DNA of 63,008 nucleotides, the filler included, from Collodictyon triciliatum (taxonomy: Eukaryota): NCBI GenBank assembly GCA_043381765.1. It is 4 parts of 4 records of this genome, joined end to end, with 100 filler letters (N's around TTAATTAATTAA, not from the genome) between each part and the next. Parts side by side here need not be neighbours in the genome. Positions count along the whole stretch, not along the records: positions 24,835 to 49,350 come from JBHJMP010001081.1; 3 more parts are not named here. The stretch is one strand, 5' to 3'. A program made the translations under genes and the position numbers. Numbering within the stretch: position 1 is the first letter of the stretch; the number at the start of each line of letters is the position of its first letter. This document shows, in pieces, positions 31,001 through 57,351 of this stretch. The notes beneath the pieces were generated by a model. That model was not told the DNA's origin and ran no database searches. It worked only from the letters and a program-made list of their open reading frames with translations.

Positions 31001-34000
31001 TTTCTTTGAAAATCGATGGTTTCTTGAAGCTTTCTAATCTCATCTTCTTTGGATGCAATTTTTGATTTCAATTCCATATTTTTACGAGCATTATTTTGTT
31101 TCTCTGCTTCCAAGGACAAAAGAAGGTTTTCTTTGGTTAGGTGGTTCATTTCGTTCGAGTATAGATAACTTATTATTTTAGTGGAAGATGACCCAAAATT
31201 TGAAGGAGCGATATCCCCCTTTAACACCAATTCCAATCTAGATCGGAAAATGGAATTTTTGAAGTGGAGTGTACTTAGCTGCTCCCAGTTGAGTGAATGG
31301 CTGTCTTTATATTCACAAGTATCAGCAGGAACTTGTGGAGGAGAATATGTGTTCCCGGTGCTAATAGCAATATCTTGGTCCCTATTATCACCTTCAGAAT
31401 CAGACACAGCAGCAGTAGTGCTTGTTTCTTGTTTTTGCTTTCCTGAGTTTCCAGGTGCAGGAATTATGTCTGCGGGTGCCTCTTGATTGGTGATTTCCGT
31501 TTCTATCATACTATCAACTTCTTCATACTGTTCATGCATCATAATTAGAGCATTTTGGATTTCAATCGGATATGCAGACTTCAACCAAGGATTACGTTGA
31601 AAGGCAACAAGTTGGAAACTGAGAATCAAGTTCAGCAAAACTTTCCTTTTTTCTCGAAAAAATGTGCGTGTAAACCTAGAACCAATATTGAATATATAGC
31701 TTATCATTTGGCATGAGAAAAGTCCCAAATTAGTTAATAATGTCTCCCATTTTTTCTCTGTGCCTTCGCCTCCTACTTTCTGACATTCTTTTTTTTCTTG
31801 GAGTAATTTCTTTATTTCTTCCATTACTTCTTTCATTCTTCCTCCAATATTTTCTTCTTTACTTTCCTTATTTCCATTCGTTTCTTCAACTTTCATGTCT
31901 CCTAATTTTCCATTGGAGGAGATTTCCGTGGAACCAGATTTATTCCCAATTTCTTCACTTTTACTGCCAGATATATCATTCTCAAGGAGTTTGTTTTCAA
32001 TTTCATCATAGTAATACAGTCCGCCTTCAGGGTATCCTGTGATGCTTATCTTCAATAAGTTAATTAACCCGTTTAGTTCCTCGTTTGAAATGAAAGAGCA
32101 TGATATGGGGAATGACGAAAACAATCGTCCAACAGTAGAGAGGCTGATGCATTCGGAAGCCCTGTCATCAAAAAAAGCAAAACATATTCTCTTGGCTCCT
32201 GCTTTGAGCTCCTCTGAAGAGCTTCCTCCAACTACAATTTTAAGAAGGTCGTAATAATTTGAAATAACTGAATATAGCCCTTTCCAAACAATTTTAATAA
32301 ATGAATTTCTATCCTCTGCAGAACCAAATCCGGTACAAGGCTGGAAGGATTTGTCCAACTCAATCATTTTCTTTGTGTATTTAATGCTATCGGCGTCCAT
32401 TATTATCTCAATGAATTTCAATCCTTGTATATGCATCAGGGGGTGCATTCCAGGGCTTAAGAGTTTGTAAATCAATTCGTATAAAGAATTGCATACCGAG
32501 AATACTTTGTGTCGATGAATATGGTGAGTACTTATCTTTTGGATGCACGAACATATGTCCAAGACATGCGATGCAAGATTTACTTCATCTCTATCGCCTC
32601 CTTCAGTCAGTTCATTCAACGCGCACATGCAAGTGACACGCCCAGAACTCGATATTTCCCATATCTTGAGCTTTCTTAGAAGCATAGGTTCTTGGGTGGG
32701 ATTTATTTCGGTATTTCTTGATCTATATAAGAGTGCAAATTTCTATATGAAAAAGTGCAGATGATCAGTTCTCAATCAAGATTTTCTCATATTTTTTAAT
32801 CATTACAACATAGTGGTGATATATTTTAAAAGGCTATTATATTGAACTCACATGCAAGTTCAGTATCGCCAAATGGCATAGGTTCTCCACGATGGATAGG
32901 TCTTTCTTTAGAAATTCAGTTCTAAGCTTATTTTTCACATCCGAAGGAAATCTGGGATATGTAAAGTTAAAGTAATTTGCCACAGATATCACATGTTCGT
33001 TCCAACAGACATCGTCGCCTCTGGCTTTTCTTAATGCTTCAAAGGCTCCTTCAACGCAACTATAATTCGTAGCATACTTAAAAGACGTGTTCAATGAGAA
33101 TTCCTTTTCGGTAATGTAACTAATTGTCGTATTTTGAGTCGACTTAAACTCTGAAGGCGATGAATCTGGACTAAGTTTTGTCCTCATCAAATTTCTCATA
33201 TCGTCAAAGAGTACTGAGAAATTCATTTCAATTTGATGGAAAATATCGGTATTCCAGTCAAACATTTTATGTAAGAATGTCCCATACAAATTTGCAGTGT
33301 CTAACATCAATAGCTTATTTTTCAATGCAAGATATCTCCTACGAATGTTACTCATGAATTGATTTAAACCTCCCAGGTGCATTGAAGAGTTTTTTTTATG
33401 GTCGGACCTATTAATGTTTGCTAACCTTGAATCAATTGACTTTTCGTAATTACTTAGGAGAAATACTGCAATAAAGTCAGCCATCTCAAGAAAGGACGGG
33501 TGTACAAAGCTCCAGTCCCCTTTGACAACGATATATCGATGTGGCACCTGGCCAAATAATTAGTTAATTGAAAATTCTGTGGGGATTGTGGGTGAAAAAA
33601 CTTCACAATATTTGGAATTTCATCCGAACGTAAGAAAAATACAAACAAAAAAAGCTGTACAAAATAGAATAACGAGATACCAACAATAAGTTATCAACAA
33701 ACCATTCCTTGATGCTCATCTGCGCCAGTTACGATATCCCTGAAGTTGCATAGGTTCCACAATTTCAGAACCGAGGCCTCCCAGTTTGGTAAGTAGCTGA
33801 TTTTCTCTTCATCGGCTACTCTCTTGAAAAAATCTTCTACGCGCAATTCATCCTCTAATTTGAAAGAGTCACCCTGGTATGTGATTAGTGTAGTCGTTCT
33901 CGAATCTGTCTTTGGCTTGCTGTAGTCCATTTTGAAGTAAATAATCTCAGGATTCAACAATGCTTCGTCCGCTACCCCTCCCGCCTGAAGCAGAGTGCGG

Positions 34001-44100: not shown

Positions 44101-44496
44101 AGCAATCCACTTGTTTGCATTGATATTGTTTCCCTCTATCTCTGCCACCCATTCTGTTTTAGGTACTGCAAGTTTGAGCACGCGACAGCATCGAGCCCTC
44201 TGAACCCTCACAAGTCGGTTGCCCATCACCACTTAATGGAGCTCGTCCACCCGTCGGTGAAAAGAGGTGAAGACAGCAACTACGATGTATACGAAAATTA
44301 CTTGAATCTGGCTAATCCAAGGAAGTGGTTGAGCGAGGACTCTGACAGACAGTCCTTTTACGAGGACTATGTCCAACGCACAACATCCGAGGCCTTTGAT
44401 GAGCCCACAACACGGTGGTGGAAGACCCACATGGATGAAAGCCAAGAAAAGCCGCTCCTTAATCCTGATTTCGGTCTTGAATCCGGGTGGATATAG
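39277..44496 (+). CDS. FIG4: SAC-domain PI(3,5)P2 5-phosphatase FIG4/SAC3
   Basis: 'LQKYNLYET', 'LDMTKNFYFSYTY', 'TLIARRSRYFAGTRFLKRGVN', 'SSFVHIRGSIPLFW', catalytic 'RINCIDSLDRTN', 'GDCIALQYGGS', 'RRYYSNNFTDAERQQSINLFLG'. Confidence 0.95.
40723..40899 (+). other. AT-AC U12-type (minor spliceosome) intron in FIG4
   Basis: 5' end ATATCCTT, U12-type branch TTCCTTAAT at 40841-40849, 3' end TTAC. Removal restores in-frame 'HGFFGQV-K-LEVLSRTVVITLIARRS'. Confidence 0.88.
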
Positions 44497-45025
44497 CCCG
44501 ACTCCACCTGCTCGCCGCTGAGCCCCAAATAAACCGCCACGTCCGCACAAAGGCTGCCAAAGAGCCAGAGGCGCTGTTCCCTACGCTCGCTATAGTCAAA
44601 TGCGGAATTTATAATTATATTCTATAATTTCCCATATTATATTTTCTAGGTTATTTAAAAACATTGCATTTTAATAAAATATAATAATAGCGCTCATATC
44701 AATGACTGACCTTAGTGAATCCTGTTTTTGAACTTTTGTATTTTTGAATGTTGCAACACAGACCACAACTAACGAATACATTATCCATATGTGGATCTAG
44801 AATGGTGTCAAAGGAGTATAAAGTATTGTTCTTGTTGCTTTCGCCTATTACCACACTAGACAAATGCAAAATTGAGCAACTGACCCATGGAGGACTGACC
44901 CAAGGAAACACTGAGACCTCAACTACAGGACAGCACGGCAGACTCTTGCGCGATGGCAAGGTTTTTAATTACCACCAGACTATCTTATCCTACATGTCGT
45001 AACCAACCCCAGTCGGGCTGCTGCT

Positions 45026-45101
45026 GTGTTGGCTGATGACACACAACCCCTCTGAGTGAATCTCATTGATGAACATACGAATTCCTCGTTACTGACAACA
45101 C
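45026..45101 (+). ncRNA. Box C/D snoRNA, predicted guide for the 18S G equivalent to yeast Gm1572 (snR57-like)
   Basis: Terminal stem GTGTTG/CAACAC, C box CTGATGA 45033-39, D' CTGA 45052-55, C' TGATGA 45067-72, D CTGA 45092-95. Guide GAATTCCTCGTT is the exact complement of conserved 18S AACGAGGAAUUC; the D+5 rule hits the G of AAC-G-AGG. Confidence 0.9.
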
Positions 45102-45312
45102 GAAGACAACAACTTGCCCAAACCTTTTCGAATCTCTTCCTCACTATTATCGAAGTGACCCAAACCTCACTGAATTGCCTCTATTTTGCAATTGCAGCAG
45201 TTGACGTTGCTTGGAGTGGCCCTCCCATCCCAAGAGTGTCCATCTGCGTCGCAGGCAGCATGCGAGGTTTGTCTCAACCTATACAGCCTTGACTTCTTGA
45301 AACTTGGCAAGC

Positions 45313-45391
45313 TGTCTGGAACGATGATTAACACCCGATTTGTCTGTAACCTTTCGTGAGGACAACACATGCATCACCAACTGACCTCACA
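45313..45391 (+). ncRNA. Box C/D snoRNA, predicted guide for the 18S U equivalent to yeast Um1269 (snR55/U33-like)
   Basis: Variant C box ACGATGA 45321-27, C' TGAGGA 45357-62, D CTGA 45381-84. Guide CATGCATCACCA pairs with conserved 18S UGGUGGUGCAUG (one U-G wobble); D+5 falls on the U. Terminal stem is weak, so the 5' boundary is uncertain. Confidence 0.75.
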
Positions 45392-45542
45392 CTTGCACAA
45401 CACTCCTGTGCACGACAACTTAATATTACGACAGCCGAACTGTCATCCTAACATGAACTCACTGCAGGCTGATCAACCCCAGGCGCGACACTGCCATCAT
45501 TGTACTAGTAAATAAACCTGAACACAACTGATATCTTGGTCT

Positions 45543-45985
45543 TGGCTGAGGTGTGATTAGCGCGGCACCTACAGGATAAGTAGCGTCATTCCACTTGCGC
45601 AGAAGGCGAAGCGAGTTCCTACGCCGATCACCCCGTGCGCGTAAGCCACAGCTCACCAACCGCGCAAGGCAGGGCTTGGCTTGTTAATGTCCTCTGAAAG
45701 TCACCTCGCCACGAAGGAATAAGTTGGCCTATGAACGCCGGCCTTTCGCAGGAATCCTGAAACACTTCTGGTTGAAAGTGGCGCTCCTGCCTCGTTCCTA
45801 GGAATGAACCTTCTGTGATACACAAGCGAACATCCACGAGCTGTCATATTCTACTGCTCCTGAACTATTCCCAGCATGTGGCGACTCCTATATTAGAGGA
45901 GGAGCAACAATACACCAGGATCAGCTCTCACCTTCTGTGAGCCGAGGGCCCGCTGGGCAAAGAAAATGGGGCTGAGTCTCGGCTT
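45543..45985 (+). ncRNA. RNase MRP RNA (~440 nt)
   Basis: CR-I GAAAGTCACC (45696-45705) pairs with CR-V ...AATGGGGCTGAGT (45965-45977) to form P4. P1 GGCTGAG/CTCGGCT; P2 GTGTG/TACAC just after CR-IV-like AGCAA; TCGCCAC(45706)/GTGGCGA(45878) closes the specificity domain; P19-like hairpin CCAG...CTCAC/GTGAG...CTGG. GGGGCT in CR-V is MRP-type rather than RNase P-type. Confidence 0.8.
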
Positions 45986-46132
45986 GTTTCTACCTCTGCG
46001 TATCACCTCTTGAAGCACCCTGTAATTTGCGCTCGTGAACTGGGATTCGTTCTACGGGGGAGTGGCATTGTCATTGTTTGGCAGTCTTTCTCATATTCTC
46101 TGTCATCTTTGAAACTAGGTAGAGACTCTGAG

Positions 46133-47327
46133 ATGTCCTCGATTCAAGTACTGGTTAGAAGGTAACGCAGCTGATTCCATTACAAGCGTGTCTGTCCCAG
46201 CAAAAACAAAGAAGTCAAAAAAAAAAAAAACCAAACAGAGGGGTCTTTTTTTTCTCTGGAAAGAGCTGAATGTCTAAACCTACCCACCCGCCTGCTTAGG
46301 AATGGTTCGAACGAGACTGCCAAAGTCTGCAAAGTTCCTCCCACGTTTGCTGAGCTTCTCGCGCGCGCTGGTACCAAAGTGCAAGTAGAAAGCCCCAAGT
46401 AAGATTTCTTTTCCTTTATTCGATTCTAAGTGCAGCAAGGTTAAAGCTCAAAGTAAGATAATAAAAAAGCAACTAAAAGAGATCAACAAAGGGGTTGAAA
46501 AAAAAAAGCTCATAAAATAATGAAAGCATGGCAATAATATTTATAAGACGACAAAACCATTAACTCGGACCATGGAGTCCTATGCGGAATTTGTAATGAA
46601 TGTATTCACATTTTTCTGTTTAGTCTAAAAGTTTTGTATTTGTTGTATTTGTCATCCTATTCGCCCAATTCACACGGCAAGCTTTTATTTCATATGTGAC
46701 CAAGACGTATATTTACGGCATCTGGAGCTGAAGTAGATGACGTAGATGACCTCATTCAAGGCGACGAAGTATATATATCTGCAGGAGAGCCCTTCATCCA
46801 CCCAAACGGTACTACTTTTTATAATAATCAGTCAGAAAAGAAAAGAAAAGAATTCCAATCAAGACCGGGCCAGTCATTTTCCATATTCATTTCTCAGCCG
46901 TGACCTATCAACAGATTGCTTTTCTTTGAATCGCGATTGATCATTAACCAAACCATAAATCAATGTCACCCGGTCTTTTGCATATCCCGATAAAAGCGAC
47001 TACACCAGCTTCACAGCCAAGCACGTCTGTGGAAAAAACATCGTCATTACCCAGAACTGAACAGAAAGCCACGGGAGGCTCCATCATCGCCACTCCAGTC
47101 CAAAGTCCGTCCAAAACGGCTTCTCCAGCACCTCAAAAAGAAGAGCAGAAAATCACTCCTAAGGATGAACCCAAGAAGGACACCAAAGAAGAGAAGTCTA
47201 CAAAAAAGAATAAAAATGGCGATGGCAAGGGAAAGGCGAGCGTCGCAACTGGGGAAGAGTTCCAAAAATGGAGCGAATCGAAAAGATTCACAAAGTATGA
47301 TTATTGCAACTGATAATTTTTTTGCTC

Positions 47328-47392
<65 letters not shown>

Positions 47393-47431
47393 CATCATCA
47401 TTATCACCACCACCACCACCACCATCATCAC

Positions 47432-47488
<57 letters not shown>

Positions 47489-47953
47489 ACAAAACAGCCC
47501 TAGCTGTTGGTGCTGATACCAGCGATCTTTGTTTGATAATGATATTTAATACATATCCTATAATGAATGAACATACAGTAAGCATGATTTGTCACATTGG
47601 CATTCTAATATGCAAATTTATTTGATTATCACTATAGTTGGAGAGCCAAAATGAAGCAAATCAGCTCGCACATATCTATGCAATATGTCAAAACAACTGA
47701 TAGTCGACAGGTATTCTTGATACTGTTGCATTCGGTCCCTGCAGGCTTCGACATTAATTTACTGCAAACCCTATATATATGAGTCAACAGAGGATACCAT
47801 ATAATAAACGAGTCATTTGTTAACTATACATAATAGGGTCTCCTTAATTTTGCATGCTCGTCTGTTGTATCTGCCCCGAGTTTCTACAAAGCAGAAGACG
47901 AAGGTATTTTCTGGAACTTTCAAGCGTGTATATTCTGAACTTTATTTCCTCTC

Positions 47954-47995
<42 letters not shown>

Positions 47996-49350
47996 ACACT
48001 TCAGATAATTAAATATCCCATCATCGCAAATGAATATGTACTATGAGATTTACATTTTGCAAATATATAATTAATCGCATGTAAAATATACTAGGTCGAG
48101 TTTCTATGATGAAGCTTGCTATCAAAATCGCTCGTGAAGATCCAGAGTATTTATTCAAACTGGTTCGTAATGTCTGACAGATACTCTACTTTGTATTATT
48201 CTTTCTTTTTCTTCGCTTTATTGATGATAAGAAGTTCCAAAAATCATAAAATTCAAAGTAACTTTGTGAGTGTAGTGATGTTAATATTTTTATATTACAA
48301 GGCCCTGTACACAAGAACAAAGCTATTTATTCGCTCCACCTCAAACTTTATTCTATCACTGGCCGCTCATCTTGGACCTTGTCATCCATTCATGAAGAAA
48401 TATTTCGAACACATCATCAAGGCGAGCTGCCATCTGTCATGGATGTTTACTATGCATAAATCATGACGTTGACTACCTTATACTTGGGCACTTTATTTGC
48501 TATTTATTTTCTTAAAATTCAACTTTGATACATTAGACTCCCGGGGATCTATTAGAGTTTGTCAATCTTTATCGAACGACGCCAAACAGAATTTTATCTG
48601 TGAGATCTCTCCCACAAAGCACCCGCCGTGTTGTTTGTAATGTTTAAAATTATTGATGCACAATTTTATCATACTCGAGATGAATCCATCGAAAGCAGAA
48701 TATTTAGGACCTGGCTAGTCCCAAGAGCTCAATACCTACTTTATTTTTGTAATTTTGGTCTTATTTCTATAGTGTTTCATTCTAGTTCAGTTGCAATCGT
48801 AACCAATGACGGCTTTTACTCTTGTAGGCGACAAATTCAAACAGTTCGATACATATCAGCTCGGGAAATACTGTTCTGAATCCGATAGAAAGGCCTTGAA
48901 TATGAAAAAAAAACCGGTAAAATTCAAAATCTATGCTTACCATCCCACCTTAAAATCAGCAAACTGCTGCAATGTATTCGCGTACGCCCAGGGAGACCGC
49001 TAGCTGTATGATTCTATTTGATTTTAGATTTTAACTATTACAACCAAATCAACTAATAATATCAGGCACTTTTAATGGGTCAACTCGCTGAAGCTGTGGA
49101 CTATGTCAGAGGTATTCCTTCTCTTTAATATTTTTACTCTCCCTTTTTTATCCGTGTTAAAACAAACAAACAAACAAACAAACAAACAAACAAACAAACA
49201 AACAAACAAACAAACAAACAAACAAACAAACAAACAAACAAACAAACAAACAAACAAACACCTGGAACACACTTCAGCTACATACAAATAGAAGCTTTTT
49301 ACACAATCCTCGTTTGGTATTGTATGTTATAACAAAAGATATCTAGATGA
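46133..49350 (+). CDS. TEP1/p80-like TROVE-domain protein with N-terminal DCX/KHA-like domain; 3' part lost at assembly gap
   Basis: N-term 'MSSIQVLVRRNG...KVPPTFAELLARAGTK...KRIFTASGAEVDDVDDLIQGDEVYISAGEPF'; low-complexity linker; TROVE 'EDPEYLFKLALYTRTKLFIRSTSNFILSLAA...MKKYFEHIIKTPGDLLEFVNLY...DKFKQFDTYQLGKY'. Confidence 0.85.
49160..49260. repeat. (AAAC)n; also (TTTG)n at 62888-63008
   Basis: Direct reading. Confidence 0.97.
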
Positions 49351-49450
49351 NNNNNNNNNNNNNNNNNNNNNNNNNNNNNNNNNNNNNNNNNNNNTTAATT
49401 AATTAANNNNNNNNNNNNNNNNNNNNNNNNNNNNNNNNNNNNNNNNNNNN
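49351..49450. other. Artificial contig spacer
   Basis: Same N44-TTAATTAATTAA-N44 layout. Confidence 0.98.
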
Positions 49451-49729: not shown

Positions 49730-49801
<72 letters not shown>

Positions 49802-57251: not shown

Positions 57252-57351
57252 NNNNNNNNNNNNNNNNNNNNNNNNNNNNNNNNNNNNNNNNNNNNTTAAT
57301 TAATTAANNNNNNNNNNNNNNNNNNNNNNNNNNNNNNNNNNNNNNNNNNNN
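57252..57351. other. Artificial contig spacer
   Basis: Same N44-TTAATTAATTAA-N44 layout. Confidence 0.98.

Follow-up and report, generated by a model that had tools for sequence, protein, structure and literature searches.

A small nucleolar RNA host gene, a GC-rich spacer and a leader-bearing DCX-TROVE mRNA in succession at a locus of Collodictyon triciliatum: probably three separate units

We analyzed a stretch of 63,008 nucleotides (nt) from the eukaryote Collodictyon triciliatum (assembly GCA_043381765.1), hereafter the window, with attention to a plus-strand locus on the contig that occupies positions 24835-49350 (JBHJMP010001081.1). The window is eukaryotic in character, AT-rich (GC fraction 0.379) and intron-bearing. 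At the locus, a short non-coding host transcript (44873-45531), with one box C/D small nucleolar RNA (snoRNA) and a second, probable one, is followed by a GC-rich spacer (45532-46116) that holds a candidate RNA of the ribonuclease (RNase) P/MRP type, and then by the first exons, from 46119 onward, of a protein-coding gene that plausibly combines a DCX-like and a TROVE domain. A preliminary description had read this arrangement as a single RNA polymerase (Pol) II transcript, with one RNA in each of three introns (snoRNA 1, snoRNA 2 and the RNase MRP RNA) and with the TROVE protein encoded downstream of them.

To trace the transcripts, we used public RNA runs: five were found, of which four (X1-X4) contain part of the stretch (shares of 0.18, 0.18, 0.05 and 0.05), and these were aligned to positions 44300-47250. 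In all four the RNA evidence consists of assembled contigs; X1 and X2 belong to the same study; X3 and X4 are metatranscriptomes, aquatic and freshwater in origin. X1 and X2 were taken as complementary DNA (cDNA) because they contain spliced joints, an A-tail and oligonucleotide letters, among them 28 loose letters at the 5' end of X1 record 2, which we take to be the template-switch oligo of SMART-type cDNA. The runs appear to be poly(A)-primed. X1 and X2 stem from a closely related organism or strain, with mismatches at 15 of 421 letters in the host RNA and at 3 of 502 in the coding mRNA.

The structure of the host transcript is given by X1 record 2 (473 nt), which reads, in order, the 28 oligo letters, 44873-44960, 45199-45531 and 22 A's; X2 records 6, 7 and 8 concur, with a start at 44874, the same junction and an end at 45531. 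Host exon 1 extends from 44873 (directly after the loose letters in X1 record 2; 44874 in X2 record 6) to 44960, and a TATAAA at 44816-44821, some 57 nt ahead of the mapped 5' end, may be a promoter element of the host gene. Intron 1 (44961-45197; 237 nt, GT..AG) contains snoRNA 1 and is removed in the RNA, the contig joints reading 44958>45196 (a cut shifted by +2) in X2 and 44960>45199, with one letter between, in X1 and X2. The junction 44960|45198 is used exactly as had been predicted from the AAG|GT at 44960|44961 and the AG at 45196-45197, and it is found in two of the four runs. The terminal exon (45198-45531) includes, unspliced, the second intron that had been proposed (45267-45467): X1 record 2 (45199-45531) and X2 record 8 (45229-45531) pass through it uninterrupted, these two runs provide the only contigs covering it, and the corresponding junction 45266|45468 occurs in none of the four. 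Its splice-like signals are in place, GAG|GT at 45266|45267 and AG at 45466-45467. The relatives carry A instead of T at 45270, the fourth base of this unused donor at 45267, and their contigs still retain the stretch.

The 3' end of the host RNA is marked by an AATAAA hexamer (45511-45516) located 15 nt before a cleavage/poly(A) site after 45531, where X1 bears its A-tail. Since the genome past 45531 reads TATCTTGG, the 22 A's are non-templated and represent a real tail. The host RNA is about 420 nt long, and its longest ATG-initiated open reading frame (ORF) has 48 codons, or four if intron 2 is removed too.

Non-coding host genes with intron-borne box C/D snoRNAs, of the GAS5/UHG type, are well known. 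The gene at 44873-45531 is a non-coding snoRNA host gene: in the relatives' contigs its RNA is spliced and polyadenylated, a snoRNA lies in the removed intron, and there is no long ORF. It shares with the GAS5/UHG-type genes a short spliced and polyadenylated RNA, the want of a meaningful ORF and the intronic position of a C/D snoRNA; it differs from them in that a second snoRNA lies inside the retained part of the polyadenylated RNA and in that both snoRNAs fall below the Rfam gathering score. Thus, the proposal of a Pol II-type host transcript stands as far as a non-coding snoRNA host is concerned, but this transcript ends at 45531 and does not encode the TROVE protein.

Box C/D snoRNAs are typified by a C box near the 5' end, a D box near the 3' end and a terminal stem, often with internal D' and C' boxes. 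All of these are found in snoRNA 1 (45025-45102), which has perfect C and C' boxes (TGATGA at 45034-45039 and 45067-45072), D' and D boxes (CTGA at 45052-45055 and 45092-45095) and a 7-bp terminal stem. It is the sole locus in the window with the C, D', C' and D boxes together with a terminal stem of at least 5 bp, a combination that arose in 1 of 300 Markov windows; its match to the Rfam family snoZ196, at 21.4 bits, does not reach the gathering score of 55. Because its 3' end lies in an intron whose removal is seen in the RNA, 95 nt short of the acceptor, snoRNA 1 is a normal intron-borne box C/D snoRNA. From its motifs, snoRNA 2 (45314-45390) is probably a further member of the class, with a C-like box (45322-45327) that has one deviation, a C'-like box (45357-45362) and a CUGA D box (CTGA at 45381-45384). 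Its terminal stem is weak, with 2 of 6 pairs non-standard in the alignment to SNORD33, and a 5-bp outer stem (45306-45310 with 45392-45396) can be read; the SNORD33 match itself, at 24.8 bits (E 0.18 in a 2-kb scan), does not reach the gathering score of 44. Hence, of the two snoRNAs in the preliminary description, the first has the full architecture and a spliced-out intron, whereas the second is probable and its intron is retained in the contigs. Intron 1 would yield snoRNA 1 through splicing, debranching and trimming to the small nucleolar ribonucleoprotein. As snoRNA 2 is located in sequence kept in the polyadenylated RNA, it would arise either from an intron that is spliced out only rarely or through cutting of the unspliced RNA.

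The body of the downstream coding mRNA begins at 46119. Its acceptor AG (46117-46118), the end of an AACTAG that had been singled out beforehand, is preceded by a pyrimidine-rich tract and lies 14 nt before the ATG at 46133. Use of this acceptor by the coding mRNA is seen in three of the four runs, with non-templated letters directly abutting 46117: 22 of them in X1 (AGCTAACACTACCTAATCAAAG) and 8 in X2 and X4 (AATCAAAG). The mRNA is therefore joined at this point to a leader not encoded in the window, as the leader string has no match there on either strand with up to three mismatches; literature substring searches did not find its letters in print, the papers listed being unrelated by their titles. 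The leader is at least 22 nt long. The contigs end 8-24 letters into it in all three runs that carry it, and the X1 contig ends after 24 leader letters despite coming from a full-length cDNA library. In the contigs, then, the coding mRNA has a leader that matches no predicted upstream exon, essentially the outcome that had been held in advance to speak against a single transcript.

Spliced-leader trans-splicing is known in several protist and animal lineages. The leader joint at 46118 is observed, and we consider it quite likely that it arises by trans-splicing of a spliced leader rather than from a remote first exon, because 21 kb of contig upstream do not contain the leader, the traced introns measure 115-343 nt and the contigs end early in the leader. 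Such early ends would be expected in k-mer assembly if the leader is common to many mRNAs. The situation resembles that of spliced-leader systems in that a short leader, not encoded nearby, is placed on an AG acceptor shortly before the start codon and after a pyrimidine-rich tract; it is unlike them in that the leader is seen here on one gene only. A rival reading, though an unlikely one, is that the leader is an ordinary cis-spliced first exon lying outside the window or on another contig. A single gene was examined and the contig extends only about 21 kb upstream, both of which leave room for such an exon; the intron needed would nevertheless exceed 21 kb, far outside the range of those traced, and several genes would lie within it, among them a 5.9-kb ORF on the opposite strand, and the early contig ends in three of three runs would suit a sequence common to many mRNAs.

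The first four coding exons (46119-47294), as delimited by contig joints, are 46119-46161 (with the ATG at 46133), 46300-46393/8, 46700/5-46808 and 46997-47294; the joints 46161|46300 and 46393|46700 are present in X1, X2 and X4, and 46808|46997 in X1, X2 and X3. Together these exons encode a DCX/ubiquitin-like domain followed by a lysine-rich tail, and exon 3 (36 residues alone) matches Ubiquitin_DCDC1 (PF25510) with 27.5 bits against a cut-off of 30.4 and DCX (PF03607) with 18.9 against 22. The second coding intron, 46393|46700, has CC..GA borders in three runs, and at an offset of 5 nt downstream there is a canonical pair, GTAAGA..AG (46399..46704), which gives a product of the same length and frame with two letters different. 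Either the intron within 46393-46705 is non-canonical, or the junction is canonical and the relatives have two different bases beside it.

Further downstream, Pfam matches and a gene model point to tentative TROVE exons at 47638-49350, with the gene running into the linker at 49351. The TROVE family (PF05731) is matched by an ORF at 48113-48463 with 29.8 bits, above the cut-off of 23, and by an ORF at 48803-49000 with 18 bits; since the contig stops at 49350, the domain is truncated. A nine-exon model (46133-48640) gives 320 codons with no stops, its GTATGA donor at 47295 skipping a stop at 47311 as well as microsatellites. The tentative model requires a GC..AG intron at 48422-48536 (GCGAGC..CATTAG) to keep the frame open. 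On this model it is plausible that DCX and TROVE belong to one gene; the RNA comparison ended at 47250, upstream of the TROVE exons. Of the gene as it had first been proposed, the PF05731 exons are thus real, while the DCX-like exon stays just below the family cut-offs. A search among longer proteins for homologues of the 48-residue TROVE exon returned none, and a metagenome scan with a codon-degenerate pattern of coding exon 2 yielded 0 stretches.

Between the poly(A) site and the acceptor lies the spacer (45532-46116, plus strand; 586 nt), which has a GC fraction of 0.519 against 0.379 for the window and contains no run of four or more T's. The RNase MRP RNA that had been proposed maps here and is therefore within no intron of either transcript. 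The candidate P/MRP-like RNA occupies 45596-46002 and was recognized by the motifs of the P4 helix, for which an excerpt of PMC1796607 gives an MRP descriptor composed of gaaAGuCCCC and acnnnanGGGGCUnannnu with a tight gap range of 120-280. This descriptor has one joint match in the window, with the 5'P4-like strand at 45696-45705 and the 3'P4-like strand at 45961-45979, a gap of 255 nt and one deviation per strand; the deviation in the 5' strand (C-to-A) breaks one P4 pair. By chance, a joint match arose in 1 of 400 Markov windows and 0 times in 4 Mb of sequence of local composition. The 3'P4 motif is adjoined by a 20-bp terminal helix (45596-45617 with 45981-46002), and the predicted fold places three hairpins between the P4 strands and one before the 5'P4.

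Several features expected of an RNase MRP RNA were sought here with negative outcome. Across the window, every Rfam family stays below its gathering score, and neither RNase MRP (RF00030) nor RNase P (RF00009) is matched in scans of 2 kb and, at E up to 10, of 511 nt, the E-value being multiplied by 4227 families and matches below about 11-16 bits staying unlisted. The spacer folds no more stably than its shuffles (z = +0.95; equal or better folds in 83 of 100 shuffles). A GARAR pentaloop on the P8 hairpin is described as a hallmark of MRP RNA in excerpts of PMC13184271 and PMC1796607, the latter adding that the motif is absent in some lineages; it was not found in the candidate, where the two hairpins that follow the 5'P4 are capped by CUAUGAAC and AAU. 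In folds of this single sequence no P5 (3 bp, next to CR-I), six-nucleotide CR-IV (AnAGUnA type, just before the 3'P2) or P2 could be assigned convincingly. Runs of four or more T's, the usual though not universal Pol III terminator, are absent from 45400-46245, with the first at 46246. A metagenome scan with a P4-anchored pattern gave 0 stretches. Positions 45587-46081 are without a contig in all four runs, which we did not use as evidence because the runs look poly(A)-primed and consist of contigs.

Two further identities for the spacer were considered. Protein coding was rejected, since all three ORFs (71-74 codons) lack a Pfam family at E up to 1. An RNase P rather than an MRP RNA might be suggested by an AGNNNNA-type motif at 45917-45924, but such a motif is expected by chance about every 64 nt, and RNase P likewise has no Rfam match. 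Separately, a 9-bp hairpin (45546-45574) stands directly after the poly(A) site and has weak matches to archaeal C/D families (sR10 with 15.9 bits, sR44 with 12.5 bits), which are probably due to chance.

When compared with RNase MRP RNA as modeled by RF00030 and described in the excerpts of PMC13184271 and PMC1796607, the candidate is alike in its P4-like motifs, each with one deviation and spaced at 255 nt, the helix beside the 3'P4 and the hairpins between the strands; it is unlike in having one P4 mispair and in lacking a covariance-model match, the GARAR loop, a clear P5, CR-IV or P2 and a T-run terminator. The MRP identity that had been claimed thus finds support at the level of the P4 motifs but no Rfam match. 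Judged on sequence features, it is doubtful that the spacer holds a divergent RNase P/MRP-type RNA; most likely it belongs to the next gene, as promoter and outron, or else specifies an unclassified RNA.

If the spacer does harbor such an RNA, it could come from a separate gene for RNase MRP RNA (or RNase P RNA), driven by a promoter of its own, that merely sits beside the host gene, a reading we regard as decidedly unlikely. It draws on the sole joint P4 match, whose gap falls within the 120-280 range quoted in the excerpt of PMC1796607, on the terminal helix abutting the 3'P4 and the four hairpins around the P4 strands, and on the GC fraction of 0.538 in the candidate block; it is countered by the silence of RF00030 and RF00009 in the 511-nt scan, the broken P4 pair, the missing GARAR pentaloop and unrecognizable CR-IV, P2 and P5, and by the lack of a T-run terminator and of any excess stability in the fold.

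A slimmer chance attaches to an operon-like Pol II precursor, from which cleavage and polyadenylation at 45531 and trans-splicing at 46118 would free the spacer, to be trimmed to a P/MRP-like RNA of about 410 nt. On this account the spacer would contain a divergent P/MRP-type RNA that is made without Pol III signals and released from a Pol II precursor by these two events. The strand that carries the poly(A) site does have, 586 nt further downstream, a 3' splice site that accepts a leader, the spacer has no run of four or more T's and hence no Pol III terminator, and it contains the P4 descriptor match and the terminal helix. However, the RNA evidence includes neither read-through nor a stable spacer RNA, Rfam gives no match, neither hairpin loop after the 5'P4 is a GARAR, and a TATA-like CTATATTAG at 45889-45897, inside the candidate, could be the promoter of the coding gene. 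Intron-embedded RNase P RNAs without Pol III signals are reported from insects and crustaceans in an excerpt of PMC4287351, which also describes MRP RNA as Pol III-transcribed in all animals examined; among the titles of the papers listed, none was on an intron-encoded MRP RNA. The candidate is like the insect and crustacean RNase P RNAs (PMC4287351 and PMC6797745) in being without Pol III signals and beside Pol II units, but unlike them it lies in no RNA-supported intron and has only a candidate identity.

Finally, the single Pol II transcript of the preliminary description, running from about 44873 through the TROVE gene and freeing snoRNA 1, snoRNA 2 and the MRP RNA from introns 44961-45197, 45267-45467 and 45502/8-46118, is very improbable: every splice-like signal that it calls for is present, including the GTACTA/GTAAAT at 45502/45508, and the RNA shows both the removal of intron 1 and the use of the acceptor at 46118, but the second junction and the third (from about 45501-45507 to 46119) occur in none of the four runs, polyadenylation at 45531 takes place inside the supposed third intron instead, and the letters at 46117 match neither 45494-45501 nor 45500-45507 nor anything elsewhere in the window, so that the poly(A) site and the foreign leader contradict the three-intron transcript with its intron-borne MRP RNA.

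On balance, we think it likely that the locus comprises three successive plus-strand units, namely the host gene, the spacer and the DCX-TROVE mRNA, and not one host transcript. The first unit, at about 44873-45531, would be a short non-coding gene, spliced once and polyadenylated. The second would be the 586-nt GC-rich spacer, most likely acting as promoter or outron of the next gene or else giving rise to an unclassified RNA. The third would be the DCX-TROVE mRNA, whose body starts at 46119 and receives its short leader at the acceptor 46117-46118, most likely by trans-splicing. Co-transcription of the units, along with release of a spacer RNA, is at most conceivable if the leader is trans-spliced.

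Some observations weigh against the division into three units. The contigs derive from relatives or strains (3.6% differing letters in the host RNA) and are not this organism's own reads; X1 and X2, coming from a single study, are not independent, and the listing marks their RNA nature as a guess. Contig assembly also loses rare isoforms, such as those with the joints 45266|45468 or 4550x|46119. A far upstream exon may mimic a trans-spliced leader, the contig reaching only about 21 kb upstream to the linker at 24735-24834. Moreover, a stable P/MRP-like RNA in the spacer keeps some probability: the spacer carries the window's sole joint match to the MRP P4 descriptor (null 1/400), pairing between the 33 nt that follow the 3' motif and the sequence ahead of the 5' motif surpasses that of 970 of 1000 shuffles, and the block, with its GC fraction of 0.538, falls in the top 2.6% of 416-nt windows, the rest of that group being all coding.

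Some features of the wider window may be recorded as well. Three identical 100-nt blocks of the form N44-TTAATTAATTAA-N44 (24735-24834, 49351-49450 and 57252-57351) resemble contig-joining linkers, by which at least four contigs are stitched into the window, and genes on either side of them, e.g., the TROVE gene and a glutaminyl-tRNA synthetase gene, are not necessarily genomic neighbors. An intronless open frame of 1975 codons spans 26815-32742 on the minus strand, whereas other genes of the window have many short introns. Long microsatellites and homopolymers, comprising trinucleotide repeats, A runs of about 39 and about 70 and a CAAA repeat, are found in introns and intergenic regions (47320-47500, 47955-47993, 49160-49260 and 49731-49800), and asparagine-repeat tracts occur inside coding ORFs. 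A tRNA scan of the window returned 0 tRNA genes, and the Rfam search found no rRNA there, the kind of RNA to which box C/D guides of 10 nt or more, ending next to the D or D' box, would pair.

With regard to their wider meaning, these results dispose of a striking but unsupported claim, namely that the leader of a TROVE gene harbors an MRP RNA within an intron; what they establish, an mRNA bearing a leader next to a non-coding host gene for snoRNAs, is ordinary, well-known biology. For a P/MRP-type RNA whose production does not involve Pol III signals, the spacer offers a testable candidate. If that were true, it would be an intercistronic or outron-borne catalytic RNA, lying beside snoRNAs and just upstream of the gene for an RNA-binding TROVE protein. 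If the leader is common to many mRNAs, the joint at 46118 would document spliced-leader trans-splicing in this AT-rich freshwater eukaryote.

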